From Patescibacteria group bacterium (GTDB taxonomy: Bacteria > Patescibacteriota > Microgenomatia > UBA10105 > UBA927): a DNA stretch of 64,000 bases. Positions within the stretch are counted from its first letter, which is position 1. Each line of letters begins with the position of its first letter. The stretch lies in the NCBI GenBank assembly GCA_035510735.1, contig DATKGN010000002.1, forward strand, positions 125,118-189,117. The letters run 5' to 3'. A program made the position numbers and the translations under genes. Shown piece by piece: positions 29,875 to 37,136 of the stretch. Under the pieces are notes generated by a model that saw nothing but the letters and a program-made list of their open reading frames with translations, was not told where the DNA came from and did no database searches.

Positions 29875-31665
29875 TTATCGGCTGGCACGAAGCGCATTAA
29901 ATATGACGCTCACATCAATAGCTTCCTGGATAAATGCACCCAAAAGCGGTGGAATCATGCCGAGCGCCGCCAAAATCATCCCGATGATGCTTAAGCCGAT
30001 ACCGACCCAAATACTCTGAAGCGCAATTGCGATTGTCCGCCGTGCAATCGTGAGCGATTCAAGGACGACCGAAAAGCTTCCGCCCAAAAACACGAGGTCA
30101 GCCGCCTCGGAGGCCGCCGTTTGCTCCTCATTACTGAAAACCATTCCGACGTCGGCGGACGCTAGAGCGGGCGCATCGTTAATCCCGTCCCCGACCATAG
30201 CCGTCACCCGTCCAAGCTGACGCAAATGCTTAATACCGTTCATCTTATCCTGAGGTGTGCATTCCGTTTTTATATCGATATCTAATCCGAGCGATTTGAC
30301 AACCTCCTGGGCTGTTTCTTTTTTGTCCCCGGTAAATATGGATAAATGAAGTCCCCAGGCATGAAGTTGTGAGAGAATTTTACGCGACTCCGGCTTAATC
30401 CGGTCCTCAAACTGGATAACGGCGATACGCCTCCGGCCCTCCCGGAGTTCAATACCGTATCCAACTGATTCTTTCACCTTTGAAAGGACATAGTGATGGT
30501 TGTCGATGGTGCCGAGTATTCCGTAGCCTATTTTTTCAGACACGCCGCGCGCGACCAAATGCTTCACCGTGCGGCTCCTTGCTTCCATAACGATAGCTTT
30601 TGCAAACGGATGTAAACTATTGCGTTCTATGGCTTCGCTCATTGCCAGTATCTGATTCTCCGTATACTTCTTATTCTTGATGATGACCCCGGATACCTGC
30701 GGTTTACCCAGCGTAATCGTCCCCGTCTTATCAAACATAATATCGGTTACCCGCGAAAGCGTCTCGATACTTGAAAGGGTTTTGACAATCACTTTACGCC
30801 GCGCGAGCGCATTCATGCCGCCGATAAGAGCAATCGGCGTTGCAAGAATAAGCGGACACGGGGTGGCGATGACGAGAACAGCAAGGACATGGTGGATATT
30901 ACCTGAAACGAGATAGGCCGCTCCGGCAAGCAAAAGGGTAACTAGGGTAAAAATACTGCTGTAGCGGTCGGCAATGCGGACAAGCGGCGATTGTGCTTCT
31001 TGCGCCTGACGCACCATATCAATAATTTTCCGGTACGTGGAATCTTTATCAGACTGGGTAACGCGGACAATCATAGGCCGCCTGATATTGATCGTGCCGC
31101 TACGAATCTGATCACCAAGAAGTTTCTCCATTTCGTAGGGTTCTCCTGTTAGCGATGATTCATCCGCCATGCCGTCCTCACTGACGAGAATGCCATCAAG
31201 CGGAATGACCTCACCTTTCCGGACGAAAATCTGCTCCCCTACCGCAACCTCGCTGATTTTTACCTTTTTTCCGATGTCATTATCCTTCCAAAGCAAAACA
31301 CTATCGGGAATCCGGCTGGTGAGAGCCGTCAGTGATTTTTTGGCCCGGGAAACCGCATATTTCTCAAGCGCCTCTCCGCCCGCAAGCATGAGGACGATAA
31401 CGGCAGCAACTAAAAATTCACCGGAAATAAGACCGGTCGTGATCGCAAGAAGAGCGATGTAATCAAGAGCAAACTGCCTATGTATGAGTGCAACGATAGC
31501 GTCACGCACCTGATCGATGCACCCGAAGAGGATAGCGACAACAATAACCGCATCGGCGAAAAACCAGTTATGAAACCCATACAGAAGAATAAGATACGCA
31601 ATAATACCCAGTACTTCAATTGCGGGCAATAAAAACAGGGTAATAAATTGTCTATACCGTTTCAT
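29875..31665 (-). CDS. P1B-type (PCP-motif, P1B-5-like) metal-translocating P-type ATPase
   Basis: DKTGTIT, TGDKKETA, GDGINDAPAL; TM6 ATPCPLILATP (a PCP rather than CPC motif); no N-terminal metal-binding domain; start moved to MKRYRQ (the 130-codon upstream extension looks non-coding). Confidence 0.8.
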   Translation of the reverse strand: MKRYRQFITLFLLPAIEVLGIIAYLILLYGFHNWFFADAVIVVAILFGCIDQVRDAIVALIHRQFALDYIALLAITTGLISGEFLVAAVIVLMLAGGEALEKYAVSRAKKSLTALTSRIPDSVLLWKDNDIGKKVKISEVAVGEQIFVRKGEVIPLDGILVSEDGMADESSLTGEPYEMEKLLGDQIRSGTINIRRPMIVRVTQSDKDSTYRKIIDMVRQAQEAQSPLVRIADRYSSIFTLVTLLLAGAAYLVSGNIHHVLAVLVIATPCPLILATPIALIGGMNALARRKVIVKTLSSIETLSRVTDIMFDKTGTITLGKPQVSGVIIKNKKYTENQILAMSEAIERNSLHPFAKAIVMEARSRTVKHLVARGVSEKIGYGILGTIDNHHYVLSKVKESVGYGIELREGRRRIAVIQFEDRIKPESRKILSQLHAWGLHLSIFTGDKKETAQEVVKSLGLDIDIKTECTPQDKMNGIKHLRQLGRVTAMVGDGINDAPALASADVGMVFSNEEQTAASEAADLVFLGGSFSVVLESLTIARRTIAIALQSIWVGIGLSIIGMILAALGMIPPLLGAFIQEAIDVSVIFNALRASR

Positions 31666-31774
31666 AGAAATCTTCCCTAGTATAGAATTGACGCCGCGCG
31701 TTGTCCATACACACCAGGAGCGCACCCGCACCGAATTGACAAGACTTTGATCTCGTGGAACAATACAAGTACAT

Positions 31775-32173
31775 ATGTTTCGAAATAAGAATGTATGGCT
31801 TTTGGGAAGCGTAGGACTTATTGTTATTGCGATCGGACTCGTTGCGATTCTTGATAGAACGAGCTCCCCGGGTAATTCTCCAAATGATGTACGAGCCAGG
31901 GCCGCCACCGCAAATACGCTCCAGTTCAACGGTACAGTGAGCGTTGTCAATGAAACCAAAGGAACAGTCGTTATTTCCGATTTATATTTTGCAAGCGTCA
32001 GCCGTTCGGGCGATGCGACGAATCTGGGGACATGGACCGTGACGGCGCCGCCCAATTTTGATTACACAACAATTTCGCAGGGAGCAAATGTTGTGGTAGG
32101 CATTGACGCAAAAACATTTCTTGCAACATCGCATACGTTGACGGCAATTACGCTTGTCCCCGGTACAAGATAA
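31775..32173 (+). CDS. hypothetical N-terminally anchored protein (132 aa)
   Basis: Single N-terminal TM helix then a Thr/Val-rich beta-like domain; divergent from the ATPase. Confidence 0.4.
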   Translation: MFRNKNVWLLGSVGLIVIAIGLVAILDRTSSPGNSPNDVRARAATANTLQFNGTVSVVNETKGTVVISDLYFASVSRSGDATNLGTWTVTAPPNFDYTTISQGANVVVGIDAKTFLATSHTLTAITLVPGTR

Positions 32174-32179
32174 TCTTCA

Positions 32180-34438
32180 TTATCCGAACGGAAAGTTATC
32201 CCCAGATTGAACAACCTTTTCGCGGCCGTTCCGTATAAGATGAACCATCCCAACGCCTAATACTTGAGACTCGTGCCGGGTCACATCGACGACGCATGCT
32301 GTTTGTTCATCAATCCCCAGTATCGTCATCCCGCCGGGCAACAGACTAACAAGCTTCTCAAACCGGCTGACCCCCATATAGCAGCGCGTCGTATCAAAGT
32401 CCTCCCCCTCCTGATTATTCCAGTGCGGGATAATGACCACGTTGGGAATCCATTGTTTAAACAGATTTATTCCCGCTATCCAATGCAGCTCCTCCCCTAC
32501 TTTAAATATTTCATAGACGGGAAGGACCTGCGCGCCCACGGCCATCGCGGTAGCTGACCCCAGACAGACGGTCATTCCGGTTTGAAACGCTTTTTCAATA
32601 TTGTGAGCCGCGCGCGAACCCTTGAGGTGCTTTACCGTATAACCGGGAGAACCGGCCCCGCAGTAGAGATAGTCTTCATGGAGAATTGAATCCACAGTTG
32701 CAGGATCATTTGTAGAATTTTGGCCGTCACAACGCCATGCACGAATTCTCGTAATCTCAGGCTTTATATTGATGAGTTTCGTCTTGAAAAATTGCTCCAT
32801 CCGCTCGGGCCACCCGTGAATCGCATTCACTTCAAAGCCTGTCGGTGTTTCAAGGATGCCGATCTTCACTCCGGCCGTTAATCCAGCCTGCTTTATTACC
32901 GTCTCATGAATTTTTCTTCCGGTCGGAGACATCTCGCCGGAGCCAAATAGGACAATTAGACCTGGTTCCCCGCGACGGAGTTTATCCTGAGCATTGCCGA
33001 AGGACTCGGGGTGAAAAATTGATTTGTTTGTCAATTTTTCATTTTTTTTTACGCGGATTCCTTGTGGAGTATCTTCAATGACGTACCCTTTGTCTTCAAT
33101 TTCGCGGCGGACGGCATCGGCATCGGCAAACCGTTTTTCCTTGCGAAGTGCTTCGCGCTTTGCCAATAAATCAGAAATTTCCTTTGGCACCGCAACTTCT
33201 TCGCTTTTGGCACTGGCAAGATCAAGTCCTAATACGCCATCGAATGATATGAGCAAATCATACCGCTCTTTTGGACTTAAGGATTGTGCCCGTATAACCT
33301 CCCAAACCACTGCAAGAGCTCTGGGAATATTTAAATTATCTTCGAGTGTTTCTTTGAATTTTTGTACGAATTCCTGCCGCAGCGGCGTCTGGTCTTTTGA
33401 TGCAAAAGATTCGCTTCTTAAGGCTGCGACAGCACTAATCAGTTCGTGTCGTGCGTTTTTGGACGCATCAAGCGCTGTCCAGGTGAAGTTGAGAAATGCC
33501 CGGTAATGTGCAGTCAGATAGAGATACCTAAGGTCTAACGGATCGTAACCCTTAGATTCAATATCTGCTAACCGGTAAAAATTCCCTTTGCTTTTGGCCA
33601 TCTTGGCGCCGTCAACCATGATGAATTGCCCGTGCACCCAATACCGCACAAACGGAGATTTGCCGGAAGCGGCTTCCGACTGGGCAATCTCATTGGTATT
33701 ATGAATGGGAATAAGATCAGCGCCGCCGGTGTGGATGTCGATCTGATCGCCTAAATGCTTTTTACTCATCGCGGAACATTCGATATGCCAGCCGGGAAAT
33801 CCCACACCCCACGGGCTCTCCCACTCCATATCCCGTTTCGGTCCTTTCGGGGAAAATTTCCAAAGGGCGAAATCGGTCGGATTCTTCTTCTGCGGATTTG
33901 GTTCTACGCGTGCGCCTTCCTTAAGTTCATCAAGGCTTTGACCCGTTAATTTTCCGTAGTCTTTAAATTTACTGGTGTCGAAATAGATCCCGTCATCAAT
34001 CTTGTAGGCGAATCCTTTAGAAAGGAGCATTTCTACCATAGCGATTTGCTCGGCAATGTGTTCGGTCGGCTTCGGCCGGACATCCGGGTCCAGGAGATTC
34101 AACTTCTTACTGTCCGCCAAAAACGCATCGGTGTAAAATCTCGCGATGTCCCACGCGGTTTTCCCCTCACGTTTGGCGCCCTTTTCCATCTTATCTTCAC
34201 CGCTATCGGAATCGGAAACAAGGTGGCCGACATCGGTAATATTGGAAACGTATTTAACCGGATACCCCAGGTATTTAATCGTCCGTACCAGAAGATCCGA
34301 CATTGTATACGTCCGGAAGTTGCCGATATGCGCATAGTCATACACCGTCGGGCCGCAGCAATAGACCGTTACCAATTTCGGATCTCTTGGAGTAAATGTT
34401 TCAACTTTTTTCCCTAATGTATTGAAGAGTCTGAGCAT
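32180..34438 (-). CDS. cysS: cysteinyl-tRNA synthetase fused to a ~290-aa C-terminal domain (peptidase S51/GATase1-like?)
   Basis: VYCCGPTVYDYAHIGN (HIGH), KMAKSKGN (KMSKS), Cys ligands; the CysRS core ends at about aa 465; the extension has GSGE and CLGSATAMA motifs. Confidence 0.85.
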   Translation of the reverse strand: MLRLFNTLGKKVETFTPRDPKLVTVYCCGPTVYDYAHIGNFRTYTMSDLLVRTIKYLGYPVKYVSNITDVGHLVSDSDSGEDKMEKGAKREGKTAWDIARFYTDAFLADSKKLNLLDPDVRPKPTEHIAEQIAMVEMLLSKGFAYKIDDGIYFDTSKFKDYGKLTGQSLDELKEGARVEPNPQKKNPTDFALWKFSPKGPKRDMEWESPWGVGFPGWHIECSAMSKKHLGDQIDIHTGGADLIPIHNTNEIAQSEAASGKSPFVRYWVHGQFIMVDGAKMAKSKGNFYRLADIESKGYDPLDLRYLYLTAHYRAFLNFTWTALDASKNARHELISAVAALRSESFASKDQTPLRQEFVQKFKETLEDNLNIPRALAVVWEVIRAQSLSPKERYDLLISFDGVLGLDLASAKSEEVAVPKEISDLLAKREALRKEKRFADADAVRREIEDKGYVIEDTPQGIRVKKNEKLTNKSIFHPESFGNAQDKLRRGEPGLIVLFGSGEMSPTGRKIHETVIKQAGLTAGVKIGILETPTGFEVNAIHGWPERMEQFFKTKLINIKPEITRIRAWRCDGQNSTNDPATVDSILHEDYLYCGAGSPGYTVKHLKGSRAAHNIEKAFQTGMTVCLGSATAMAVGAQVLPVYEIFKVGEELHWIAGINLFKQWIPNVVIIPHWNNQEGEDFDTTRCYMGVSRFEKLVSLLPGGMTILGIDEQTACVVDVTRHESQVLGVGMVHLIRNGREKVVQSGDNFPFG

Positions 34439-34453
34439 GGAGTAAGCTTACTA

Positions 34454-35356
34454 TTAAATCTTCAACTTTTCAACGCCGATGCCGGCCGCAATAATAAGTA
34501 GTCCGCCAAAAATCTGGATAAGCGTGAGTGACTCCCCGAGAAACGAAAACGCCAATACCGACACGATAACCGGCGTCAATGAAAAAATCATGGTAACAAA
34601 TGACGCGGACGACTCCTTAAGCGCCCGGTAACGGAACGTCGTAATAAGAATTTGACATATCGTTAGGGCAATGATGAGCGGGATCCCTGACGGGATGACC
34701 AAGGCATGTTGCCACCACGTGACGATGAGAAGCGGAATGAATCCCAACAGCGTGCTTACCGACGCTGCAACATCACTGTGAACAATTTTCGCAGCTATTC
34801 GGCCCAACACATTATTTCCCAAACTGATAAGCAATGCCTCAGTAATGGTGAGTATGTCGCCGGTTGATAGAGACAGTACACGTCCTTTTGTGGTAAGAAA
34901 ATACGACCCGACAAGTATAACGACTGCAAGAATAATTTTCTTTTTCGTTAACGGTTCCTTAAGGAAAATATATGCTTCAAGAATGGTAAAAAGTATAACC
35001 GTCCGAATGAGAAATGAATAATTTACGGCAGGACTGTATGTCAACGCATAAACTTCCGTAATAGTGACGCCGACAGAACTCACAAGAGCAATACCCAACA
35101 AAACTCCCCACGCTTTTGCATTCAACGATCTAATATCCCGTCTAAATTGAAACGCCTTTATCATCCAATACGGCAACTCAAATATTGAAGCCCAAATAGC
35201 GACGGTCAGCGTGAGATTTGACGTTTGGTGTAAAAGAATCCGTTCGAGAATAATCGCGATTGCCCAAACGATTGCTGCAATTGTGGCGTACCGGAATCCT
35301 GAGCTCATATACTTATAATGTAACCGCCTTCGGTAATGAGTAATTAAATTGTTCAA
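34454..35356 (-). CDS. EamA/DMT-family transporter
   Basis: 10 TM helices in two 5-TM halves. Confidence 0.65.
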   Translation of the reverse strand: MNNLITHYRRRLHYKYMSSGFRYATIAAIVWAIAIILERILLHQTSNLTLTVAIWASIFELPYWMIKAFQFRRDIRSLNAKAWGVLLGIALVSSVGVTITEVYALTYSPAVNYSFLIRTVILFTILEAYIFLKEPLTKKKIILAVVILVGSYFLTTKGRVLSLSTGDILTITEALLISLGNNVLGRIAAKIVHSDVAASVSTLLGFIPLLIVTWWQHALVIPSGIPLIIALTICQILITTFRYRALKESSASFVTMIFSLTPVIVSVLAFSFLGESLTLIQIFGGLLIIAAGIGVEKLKI

Positions 35357-37136
35357 TACTCTTCCATTGGTCCGTTGTTATGTGTGGTATTTTATTGTTT
35401 TTTATATACAGACAGGACGGCGCATTATCGTGATCGAGCCGAACGTAAAGATACGCTAATTGAGGCGGCATCGTGGTAAATTCGTTCGATTTCCCCCAGC
35501 ACCGGCCGTAAAAAAAGACCGGAGGATCCTTTTTGAGCATTTCATCGCGCGCTTTTGTATACACCGTAAAATACGGCATGAGCGATGTATACCAGCTGTA
35601 CGGGTAATCGGAATACCTGCCAGCCTGCCAGTAAATAAGATCATCCTGACCGTCAAGGAATAGGGTGTCAGCGGGATTGGATAATAACCGTACCGTTTCT
35701 CCGACGACATAATATTGATTGTAATTTGTCGTGAACTCCGTTTGCCGGTCAACCTGTTCATGAAGATAGGATGCGGGCGACACAAGCGCATATACCGATA
35801 ATCCCAAAAATACCGCCCCGCCGATAAGAGAAATCCATCGTACATTTCTGTACTGCCATACTTTTACCAACAGGCTCAGAACGGTGAATATGACCAGCGC
35901 ATACCACTCTATATGATGAAACGTGCCGTAATAGAGACTTCCGGGGATAATCGTCCTAATGTTTGCGAGTGTTAACACAGCAAGCGCAATAATGACGCCT
36001 GATATATTTTTCGATTTCACCAATACCAAAATTCCAAATAAAATAAGTAATGCCATGAGGCCTGCTTCCACCTCACGAAATAGATTCCAATTCCCTTCAT
36101 AAAATACCTGCAGTGGATATAAAAAAACACTCCACGTTCCCCCGCTTTGAGCAGCAACCTGCGTGGCTTCGATAGTGATGTTATGTTCATTAACCGTAAA
36201 CACGTTAAACATAAAATCGTTTATGCCAAAGTACGTAACAGAAGCGAGTGACATAAGAAAAAGAAGTATTCCCGACCACCAAATCCAGACAGTTTTTCTC
36301 ATAAACCAGAGCATTACGGCAAATAGCATAAGAACGAGCGGAATATACGGTTCGCGGGTAAATACGACAAACCATGTAAATATGGTTGCGAGAAATACTT
36401 CGAAGGGTGACACGCGCTTCTTTTGCAAAAATTCCCACACAAGACCCCACAAATACACGACCGGGTAGACGATGATGGGCTCGGCCAAAAACCGGTCGCC
36501 GAAAATAAACCCTTTTGTCGATTCAAAGAGAATGGCAAATCCGAATCCGACAACGCCAAACCGTAGTGTGAGGAAGATGTCAGCAATAATGGACAGATAA
36601 ATCATAAACATCCGGTGCTGGTAAATAAGCATGTAGATGGAATCCGGTTTCGTCAGGTGCTGGATAAGGGCGCTTATGTAGGCCATCGACGGCATGTGGT
36701 TAAAGAAAATTTCAGAGAACATCTTTTTGCCGTGAAGGAGGAAATACCCGCCCATCATGTTATTGCAGTCGTCGAAACACCCGAATGCACCGATCCGGTC
36801 GCGGTAAATTGAACGAAGATATATCCATAACGGGATGAGGAGAAAAACGAAAAGCAATCTTAGGGAGAAGCGCTTTGGTCGCTGCGCCTTTTGTGCGCAT
36901 CCGTCAGTGCTTGAGTCGCGGGTGACGCGGGACGGAGGGCCTCCACCGGCCGGGGTCCCCTTCGTGGGTGGCCGTGGAGGAAAACCCGCGGCAGGACCCG
37001 CACTCTGATCTTGCGCAGTGACGGTGCTGACAAAACGTGCAGCTCCCCGCGCTTCTCTGTTCTTTTGATTATTCTGAATATTAATCCTGTCTAACGTTGC
37101 GGTTTTCCGTCGCGGTTTGTTTGGCTTTTTTGCCAT
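35313..37136 (-). CDS. large polytopic membrane protein with a basic low-complexity N-terminal tail
   Basis: More than 10 TM helices plus a C-terminal soluble domain; start chosen at MAKKPNKPRRK; the ORF-track extension overlaps the upstream gene. Confidence 0.5.
   Translation of the reverse strand: MAKKPNKPRRKTATLDRINIQNNQKNREARGAARFVSTVTAQDQSAGPAAGFPPRPPTKGTPAGGGPPSRVTRDSSTDGCAQKAQRPKRFSLRLLFVFLLIPLWIYLRSIYRDRIGAFGCFDDCNNMMGGYFLLHGKKMFSEIFFNHMPSMAYISALIQHLTKPDSIYMLIYQHRMFMIYLSIIADIFLTLRFGVVGFGFAILFESTKGFIFGDRFLAEPIIVYPVVYLWGLVWEFLQKKRVSPFEVFLATIFTWFVVFTREPYIPLVLMLFAVMLWFMRKTVWIWWSGILLFLMSLASVTYFGINDFMFNVFTVNEHNITIEATQVAAQSGGTWSVFLYPLQVFYEGNWNLFREVEAGLMALLILFGILVLVKSKNISGVIIALAVLTLANIRTIIPGSLYYGTFHHIEWYALVIFTVLSLLVKVWQYRNVRWISLIGGAVFLGLSVYALVSPASYLHEQVDRQTEFTTNYNQYYVVGETVRLLSNPADTLFLDGQDDLIYWQAGRYSDYPYSWYTSLMPYFTVYTKARDEMLKKDPPVFFYGRCWGKSNEFTTMPPQLAYLYVRLDHDNAPSCLYIKNNKIPHITTDQWKSIEQFNYSLPKAVTL

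Follow-up and report, generated by a model that had tools for sequence, protein, structure and literature searches.

The fused gene and its synthetase part

We describe a gene in a 64,000-nucleotide stretch of DNA (hereafter the window) from Patescibacteria group bacterium (GenBank assembly GCA_035510735.1, contig DATKGN010000002.1, positions 125,118 to 189,117). It encodes a complete cysteinyl-tRNA synthetase (CysRS) that continues in frame, through a flexible linker, into a domain resembling the serine hydrolases of peptidase family S51 (Table 1). Its product has the accession HUD18986.1, where it is named "cysteine--tRNA ligase [Patescibacteria group bacterium]". The initial annotation of the DNA, made from the sequence alone, had placed the end of the CysRS at about residue 465, and this agrees with the cysS equivalog TIGR00435, which covers residues 2-465 end to end. 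The synthetase comprises a class I catalytic Rossmann domain (Pfam tRNA-synt_1e, PF01406, residues 15-327) with the signatures HIGN (residues 37-40) and KMAKS (279-283), as well as the motifs CGPT (28), HIEC (218), and HNTNE (246), which we take to form the zinc site by comparison with E. coli CysRS. Since all these elements are present, the CysRS looks functional.

Beyond residue 465 the open reading frame (ORF) runs on for 287 amino acids (residues 466-752, positions 32183-33043) without an internal stop, much as the continuation of about 290 amino acids first described; the interval originally assigned to it, 32180-33045, covers the extension and ends two bases past the frame boundary. The initial annotation had asked whether a frameshift or a read-through lay behind the long ORF. 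The 2,259-nucleotide gene is nucleotide-identical in the Logan assemblies of four separate runs (SRR8676592, SRR8676594, SRR8693975, and SRR8693976), and on this ground we reject an assembly or frameshift artifact at the junction. The fusion of CysRS and hydrolase is thus real, in frame, and reproducible. Neither a second cysS nor a second copy of the S51-like gene is present in the window, and it contains no tRNA genes.

Fold and predicted catalytic residues of the S51-like domain

The likeness of the extension to peptidase S51, cyanophycinase, and peptidase E, which had been proposed from its composition, is borne out by comparisons of increasing sensitivity. Profile matches are weak: the domain scores 20.4 bits (17.9 for the full protein) against Peptidase_S51 (PF03575), under the cutoff of 23.9, and its relatives score 14.9 to 17.3, also under the cutoff, so that domain and relatives form a divergent, separate subfamily. 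The cyanophycinase equivalog TIGR02069 aligns over a 30-residue stretch with 21.9 bits, compared to a cutoff of 126.6 (E=1e-4). Among Protein Data Bank (PDB) sequences, the single domain matches 6nqc, a "cyanophycinase-like exopeptidase," over its whole length (E=2.7e-5), and a profile of 19 family sequences finds the same entry at E=2e-13.

An AlphaFold2 (AF2) model of the domain, built on the 19-sequence alignment (predicted local distance difference test [pLDDT] score, 91; predicted template modeling [pTM] score, 0.90), was compared with the PDB by Foldseek. Its best 20 neighbors are all S51 peptidases, with E values from 1e-16 to 7e-07 and template modeling (TM) scores of up to 0.81. The closest is 6nqc (E=1e-16, TM 0.76/0.81), ahead of cyanophycinase (3en0 and 7uqw, E about 1e-12, TM 0.71) and peptidase E (about E=1e-10); the matches that come after the S51 set are unrelated, at E values of 0.01 or more. 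The model of a Chloroflexota member likewise has the S51 fold by Foldseek. As modeled, the domain is a peptidase-S51 fold.

The motifs singled out in the initial annotation are present, namely GSGE, YLYCGAGSPGY (around residues 594-598), and CLGSATAMA, whose GSATA occupies residues 627-631. The last had been read as a GxSxT nucleophile elbow; it is in fact G-S-A-T, the counterpart of the S51-type S-A-G-A. In sequence alignments, Ser628, His672, and Glu711 fall on the catalytic motifs of the S51 structures 6nqc, 7uqv, and 3l4e, and none of the three residues varies in three family alignments (A1, A2, and A3) that span all architectures described below. The domain therefore looks catalytically competent, with a predicted Ser628-His672-Glu711 triad. 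The family also has invariant motifs of its own (ETPxGFExN, LPVYEI.K.GE..HW, and PHWNN.EG..D) and, because both curated cutoffs are missed as well, we do not regard the domain as an orthologue of cyanophycinase or PepE. Pfam and NCBIfam models of known editing domains (YbaK-INS, tRNA_SAD/AlaX, and DTD) gave no match to the domain at E<=1.

Table 1. Features of the fused gene and of its neighbors in the window
Feature	Position	Strand	Remarks
Whole fused ORF, CysRS-linker-S51-like hydrolase	32180..34438	-	752 aa plus stop, 2,259 nt, no internal stop
Complete CysRS, residues 1-465	33044..34438	-	TIGR00435, 460.8 bits (cutoff 340); PF01406, E=1e-97
CysS_C anticodon-binding module, residues 417-460	33059..33190	-	PF23493, 27.8 bits (cutoff 23)
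A9 homopolymer, GTA AAA AAA AAT (V463 K464 K465 N466)	33042..33050	-	CysRS/extension boundary
Linker, residues 466-491, 26 aa, NEKLTNKSIFHPESFGNAQDKLRRGE	32966..33043	-	Sequence and length vary among relatives
S51-fold serine-hydrolase-like domain (predicted), residues 492-752, 261 aa	32183..32965	-	AF2 pLDDT 91; Foldseek 6nqc, E=1e-16; cyanophycinase, E=2e-12; PepE, E=1e-10
GSGE motif, residues 499-502	32933..32944	-	After first beta-strand; nearly invariant; also in 6nqc
GSATA, residues 627-631, putative nucleophile Ser628	32546..32560	-	Aligned to SAGA of 6nqc, pseudo-CphB, and Lmo0363
PHWNN, putative catalytic His672	32414..32428	-	Aligned to PHFN/PHYNN of S51 structures; invariant
GIDEQTA, putative catalytic Glu711	32297..32317	-	Aligned to GIDE.TA of 6nqc and pseudo-CphB; D-E invariant
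ORF of 132 aa	31775..32173	+	N-terminal hydrophobic segment; no Pfam match
P-type ATPase ORF	29875..32055	-	726 aa from TTG
EamA-family transporter	34454..35356	-	Directly upstream of cysS
Large multipass membrane protein	35316..37136	-	607 aa; no Pfam match

Distribution and architectures of the family

Homologues of the hydrolase domain are numerous. There were 902 matches in the initial search, with at least 594 matches among species (Genome Taxonomy Database [GTDB] representatives) and at least 586 in metagenomes. The members come almost entirely from Chloroflexota (Anaerolineae, Caldilineaceae, Dehalococcoidia, and Thermomicrobia) and from Microgenomates-type Patescibacteria (Gottesmanbacteria and Roizmanbacteria). 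The metagenome scan yielded nearly only loci of the Chloroflexota type and few further junctions adjacent to cysS.

Four architectures were apparent from alignment. A hidden Markov model of the C-terminal tails of 119 genuine CysRS proteins was run on the stop-to-stop ORFs of 168 distinct loci. In 135 of these, the S51-like domain is followed by a C-terminal anticodon-binding module of the CysRS type, and in another 6 the module is N-terminal and the S51-like domain comes after it. The module is thus fused to the hydrolase, with no CysRS catalytic domain, at 141 of the 168 loci. A complete cysS lies directly upstream, in another frame, at 7 loci, and 2 loci encode a full CysRS-S51 fusion, the window being the third; the remaining 18 have no detectable module, and several of them are cut by contig ends.

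The identity of the module rests on several observations. Pfam CysS_C is found above its cutoff at the N terminus of one protein (P0095) and at the C terminus of two others (P0110 and P0117). The tail of a Chloroflexota member (P0295) matches CysRS alone among PDB sequences (E. coli 1li5/1u0b, residues 399-456, E=8e-5) and, in the AF2 model, consists of helices and a beta-hairpin with pLDDT values of 92 to 97. Foldseek of the whole Chloroflexota model, in which the S51 domain dominates, gave no CysRS match for the tail. The fused modules share with genuine CysRS tails the conserved positions R..AR..D[FW]..AD..R....G....DT..G and, for this reason, appear to be under the same constraint.

No cysS catalytic core occurs within 4 kb of the module-only loci. 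Nor was a conserved operon partner found, the best neighbor family being present at 13 of 80 loci. Because no other neighbor is conserved, we consider CysRS or tRNA-Cys to be the partner of these proteins, rather than the operon of some pathway.

The family is poorly named in public records, where its members appear as "hypothetical," as "cyanophycinase-like exopeptidase" or, wrongly, as "cysteinyl-tRNA synthetase." Stand-alone or module-only S51-like proteins of 250 to 330 amino acids (KKS41980.1, MDO8497321.1, HCM37805.1, and others) are labeled "cysteinyl-tRNA synthetase" or "cysteinyl-tRNA synthetase-like protein" in NCBI and UniRef. As the catalytic domain is missing, this naming is a spreading annotation error. 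There is no model for the hydrolase family itself in Pfam or NCBIfam.

Fused and split forms

The initial annotation did not recall the fusion as a standard CysRS architecture, and full fusions are indeed exceedingly rare: a junction-spanning query of 5.8 billion protein clusters recovered just three. Besides the window protein these are P0278 (782 amino acids, 54% identity), which is present in an NCBI metagenome-assembled genome and in an independent Logan assembly, and P0279 (768 amino acids, 51% identity). An exhaustive search of representatives with the full protein returned nothing that scored above plain CysRS; the two other fusions emerged from the junction-spanning query alone. A candidate fusion in another order, P0130 (858 amino acids), was rejected, being a CysRS duplicated in tandem or in part and without similarity to S51.

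Relatives that are 55 to 79% identical in the S51 domain encode the hydrolase as a separate gene, right after a cysS of 465 to 477 amino acids. The possibility that the extension is an independent gene, raised in the initial annotation, is therefore the actual arrangement in these relatives but not in the window, where the frame is reproducibly continuous. The split pairs usually overlap by 4 nucleotides (ATGA or TTGA), which is typical of cotranslated partners, and their local synteny agrees with that of the window: a bactofilin/DUF8173 gene is close by, an EamA transporter gene precedes cysS, and a small convergent ORF follows the pair.

In a quick neighbor-joining tree that carries no support values, fused and split forms intermingle: the split L091 is the sister of the window protein, and the split L173 is that of P0278. 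The N-module and C-module architectures are separate clades. Given the opposite sides of the module in the two clades and the fusions scattered among split forms, the association arose more than once, with the module on either side of the hydrolase. The N-module proteins are equivalent to the final third of a full fusion that persists as a gene in its own right.

Some further features of the split loci concern the junction. The cysS of L006, from the closest relative, is longer by 20 codons and ends at a TAA after 498 amino acids. When L006 (positions 1769-1840) is compared with L091 (1-130), the flanking coding sequence is at least 90% identical, whereas the linkers of about 60 nucleotides are wholly different, so the linker must be hypervariable or have been exchanged. 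L011 is from the same species as L006, and its junction is masked by N.

The poly-A tract at the boundary

The boundary between CysRS and the extension coincides with a run of nine adenines, the sole A or T run of at least nine in the window. With A9, the window gene is in frame for the fusion; A8 would give ...VKKMKN* and A10 ...VKKK*, with a stop within one to four codons. The sequence GTA-A8 is identical in all nine lineages in which the hydrolase gene is adjacent to cysS or fused to it, despite saturation of the synonymous sites around it: in the 60 nucleotides upstream of the tract, third positions at identical amino acids are only 42% identical. From codon usage, the joint probability of the conserved GTA-A8 is about 1e-10, a naive figure since the lineages are related. 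The tract lies at L003 4984, L012 3951, L013 3960, L171 2466, L173 2460, L006 ~1769, and L091 ~55.

All seven split loci have an A9 tract, through which the S51 ORF stays open in the -1 frame; a CysRS-S51 fusion would thus result if the mRNA gained a single A or if the ribosome slipped by -1. In L006 and L091, from the closest relative (79% identity), no ATG, GTG, or TTG precedes the conserved PGLIVLFGSGE strand of the S51 ORF. The two other fused genes have A10 (gene position 1497 in L174/L175 and 1425 in L176) and read ...VKKK-D-Q-L..., which is the -1-frame reading of the split loci. In the window gene, the linker is rephased so that A9 itself gives the fusion. It is possible that the A10 of L174 and L176 stems from a homopolymer sequencing error.

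Programmed slippage at the boundary tract is an attractive hypothesis. The layout of the window gene resembles that of Thermus thermophilus dnaX, in which slippage occurs on A9 with the long product in frame and a stop nearby otherwise (Baranov et al. 2005, PMC1088944). In layout, the two overlapping ORFs of the split relatives, which one extra A would join, recall Shigella mxiE, where transcriptional slippage joins two ORFs (Baranov et al. 2005, PMC1088944). Folding of the RNA around the tract in five split loci gave no consistent signal (z scores of -2.1 to +0.5 for the 75 nucleotides downstream and of -1.7 to +1.2 for the 60 nucleotides upstream). RNA structure is not needed for slippage on A9. 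No relevant work on slippage in CPR bacteria came up in a literature search. Other roles for the tract are conceivable: it could serve initiation as an A-rich signal, some 7 nucleotides ahead of a coupled start codon, it may reflect inertia or a remnant of lysine codons, or it may act as a replication-slippage hotspot that toggles between fusion and fission.

Neighboring genes and other CysRS architectures

The genes around the fused gene are partly shared with relatives. The 132-amino-acid ORF, which is convergent to the 3' end of the S51-like gene, has counterparts in L003 (5839-6237), L006 (2627-3025), L171 (3300-3755), and L174 (5339-5740). At least five lineages keep it in this position; in two of them (L171 and L174), its end and that of the S51-like gene share a few bases. 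The P-type ATPase ORF is about 130 amino acids longer than the 596-amino-acid gene of L007, so its long N terminus is probably untranslated.

The EamA-family transporter gene directly upstream of cysS is also present in a 63%-identical relative; in the related loci it lies at L171 177-1037 and L007 2131-2985. The EamA family includes exporters of cysteine and O-acetylserine, and a link of this gene to cysteine handling is possible, within what is a very broad family. The gene for the large multipass membrane protein lies upstream as well.

Among the closest CysRS relatives of the window protein, other unusual architectures were encountered. Five proteins of 709 to 818 amino acids (P0155, P0164, P0194, P0267, and P0268) carry a C-terminal family-2 glycosyltransferase domain, two of them with His-rich C termini, and P0217 (768 amino acids) has a PALP (cysteine-synthase-like) domain N-terminal to CysRS.

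A proposed hydrolase directed to tRNA-Cys

The gathered evidence favors a role linked to tRNA-Cys. Linkage to CysRS or to its module is found at 135 + 6 + 7 + 2 of the 168 loci, as well as in the window, and supports recruitment of the hydrolase. The reading that we prefer, held tentatively and as something short of probable, is that an S51-fold serine hydrolase has been recruited to tRNA-Cys by way of a CysRS module and serves as a deacylase or quality-control enzyme that acts on the aminoacyl ester. The anticodon-binding module would bring the hydrolase to tRNA-Cys; in the window protein, a flexible linker of about 26 amino acids tethers it to the C terminus of CysRS, directly after that module. 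The serine could then attack the aminoacyl ester of the acylated tRNA-Cys, forming an acyl-serine intermediate that would be resolved by hydrolysis. The reaction would take place in cis, on tRNA that is bound to CysRS or just released, in the window organism, and in trans in the module-only relatives. We infer aminoacyl-tRNA-Cys as the substrate and deacylation as the outcome: the aminoacyl ester is the sole acyl group on a tRNA and S51 exopeptidases attack, by way of an acyl-serine intermediate, the carbonyl of a residue whose amino group is free, so the chemistry would fit.

Several considerations weigh against this proposal. CysRS is considered not to need editing (reviewed in PMC7373986), which makes a hydrolase acting on tRNA-Cys unexpected, and a synthetase that is accurate without editing leaves no evident mischarged product for a hydrolase to act on. 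Nor is the domain basic (pI 6.2 in the window protein; median of 6.75 in stand-alone members). The anticodon-binding module is about 70 Angstrom from the tRNA acceptor stem, so the hydrolase would have to reach across, to act as a dimer, or to act on another tRNA. To our knowledge, no known editing domain has the S51 fold. Finally, homology does not reveal the substrate, since the match to the Pfam S51 model stays under the cutoff and the stretch that follows the catalytic His is unlike that of cyanophycinase.

The competing explanations differ in what they make of the module. The protein could be an ordinary S51 exopeptidase or dipeptidase that frees an amino acid, such as cysteine, from scavenged peptides for use by CysRS, the module serving colocalization or control by uncharged tRNA-Cys. 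Every characterized S51 relative is a peptidase, Patescibacteria generally rely on salvage, an M20 peptidase and a major facilitator superfamily (MFS) transporter occur near some split loci, and in both the window and L171 an EamA-family transporter gene precedes cysS. However, the M20 and MFS neighbors are not kept across the family, and a salvage peptidase leaves unexplained why, at 141 of 168 loci, the hydrolase is joined to just the anticodon-binding module, at a distance from cysS and with no catalytic domain of CysRS; we consider this explanation doubtful. The same evidence for recruitment to tRNA-Cys would also suit an aminoacyl transferase dependent on Cys-tRNA-Cys, in which the serine donates the cysteinyl group not to water but to an amine acceptor (a peptide, a component of the cell envelope, or a small-molecule thiol precursor, for instance). 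It is generally known that acyl-serine enzymes are often transferases and that aminoacyl-tRNA-dependent transferases of several folds exist, but no conserved neighbor gene hints at an acceptor pathway and the S51 fold is without such a precedent, so a transferase seems quite unlikely.

Two further explanations were considered. One holds that the fused gene is an incidental or artifactual read-through of two neighboring genes, without functional meaning, and that an assembly error or an indel in the homopolymer produced it. It gains some appeal from the seven of seven close split relatives in which a gene of its own, following cysS, encodes the domain, and from the hypermutable A9/A10 boundary, where the two other "fusions" are one A away from split forms. 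We nevertheless consider it very unlikely, given that the gene is identical in the four independent run assemblies, that the window fusion is independent of tract length (its A9 is that of the split loci, with a rephased linker), that the linker holds a single possible in-frame start codon, a TTG, that three diverged lineages (51 to 54% identity) are fused, and that independent genes are kept for the N-module proteins, the equivalents of a fusion's final third. The other holds that the domain is a noncatalytic appendage, derived from an S51 peptidase, with a structural, oligomerization, or ligand-sensing role. Pseudoenzymes do exist in the S51 fold (PDB 7uqv is named "pseudo-CphB"), but the Ser, His, and Glu and about 40 other positions are invariant from Chloroflexota to Patescibacteria at 38 to 79% overall identity, a pattern of active enzymes that makes an inert appendage most improbable.

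In its most far-reaching form, the preferred reading of a hydrolase directed to tRNA-Cys would mean that tRNA-Cys has an enzyme of its own for proofreading, deacylation, or aminoacyl transfer, the first of its kind, and that a peptidase fold with no earlier link to tRNA has been put to this use. The A9/A10 tract of Microgenomates would then be a programmed slippage site that gives free CysRS and the fusion from one locus, with the default product switched by single-A indels. We judge this combination unlikely.

Significance

CysRS is the textbook case of a synthetase without need of editing, because its zinc-thiolate recognition is so selective (PMC7373986). Hundreds of species of Chloroflexota and Patescibacteria keep an apparently active hydrolase tied, physically or genetically, to a tRNA-Cys module, which would imply an unrecognized step involving tRNA-Cys, whether quality control of Cys-tRNA, removal of damaged or noncognate aminoacyl groups, or tRNA-dependent transfer. 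If so, this would be a new fold among tRNA-directed hydrolases. The analysis suggests a hydrolase of this kind, appended to the synthetase or acting in trans, for a synthetase that is thought to need none. A large uncharacterized family tied to the module lends this more weight than a one-off fusion would. Correct annotation is a practical gain for a family that is misnamed and has no Pfam or NCBIfam model. How gene fusions originate could also be studied at the conserved A9/A10 boundary, where split, hard-wired, and possibly slippage-dependent forms exist in nature as a series.

Comparison with known systems

The closest solved structure, 6NQC, is a peptidase of an acI-B1 actinobacterium with 22% identity to the window domain and TM scores of 0.76 to 0.81. 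The two share motifs from end to end (GSGE, G-G-D/S-P, S-A-G/T-A, PH.N, and GIDE.TA). Unlike members of the family described here, 6NQC has no CysRS module and no reported link to tRNA, and it is devoid of the family motifs ETPxGFExN, LPVYEI.K.GE..HW, and PHWNN.EG..D. No paper on the function of 6NQC was found in a literature search, and none that links S51 or cyanophycinase-like proteins to CysRS or tRNA. The window domain also shares its predicted fold with CphB (3EN0 and 7UQW, TM about 0.7) and PepE (1FY2 and 6A4R, TM about 0.63) of MEROPS family S51, whose Ser-His-Glu arrangement is equivalent by alignment. The identity to these enzymes is 14 to 17%, however, and the segment after the catalytic His is acidic in the window domain. 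CphB and PepE are free-standing peptidases that act on Asp-containing substrates, and they have no connection to tRNA.

In organization, the closest parallels are YbaK/ProXp, AlaX, ThrRS-ed, and DTD, which are either appended to a synthetase or free-standing with a tRNA-recognition element. The family described here likewise includes both kinds, with 3 full fusions, 141 module-only proteins, and 7 genes adjacent to cysS among the 168 loci and the window. No editing factor is known for CysRS or tRNA-Cys (PMC7373986). The established factors have no sequence or fold relation to the window domain and are not Ser-His-Glu acyl-enzyme hydrolases. A hydrolase recruited to tRNA-Cys would thus resemble the editing and trans-editing systems of other synthetases without belonging to any of their families.

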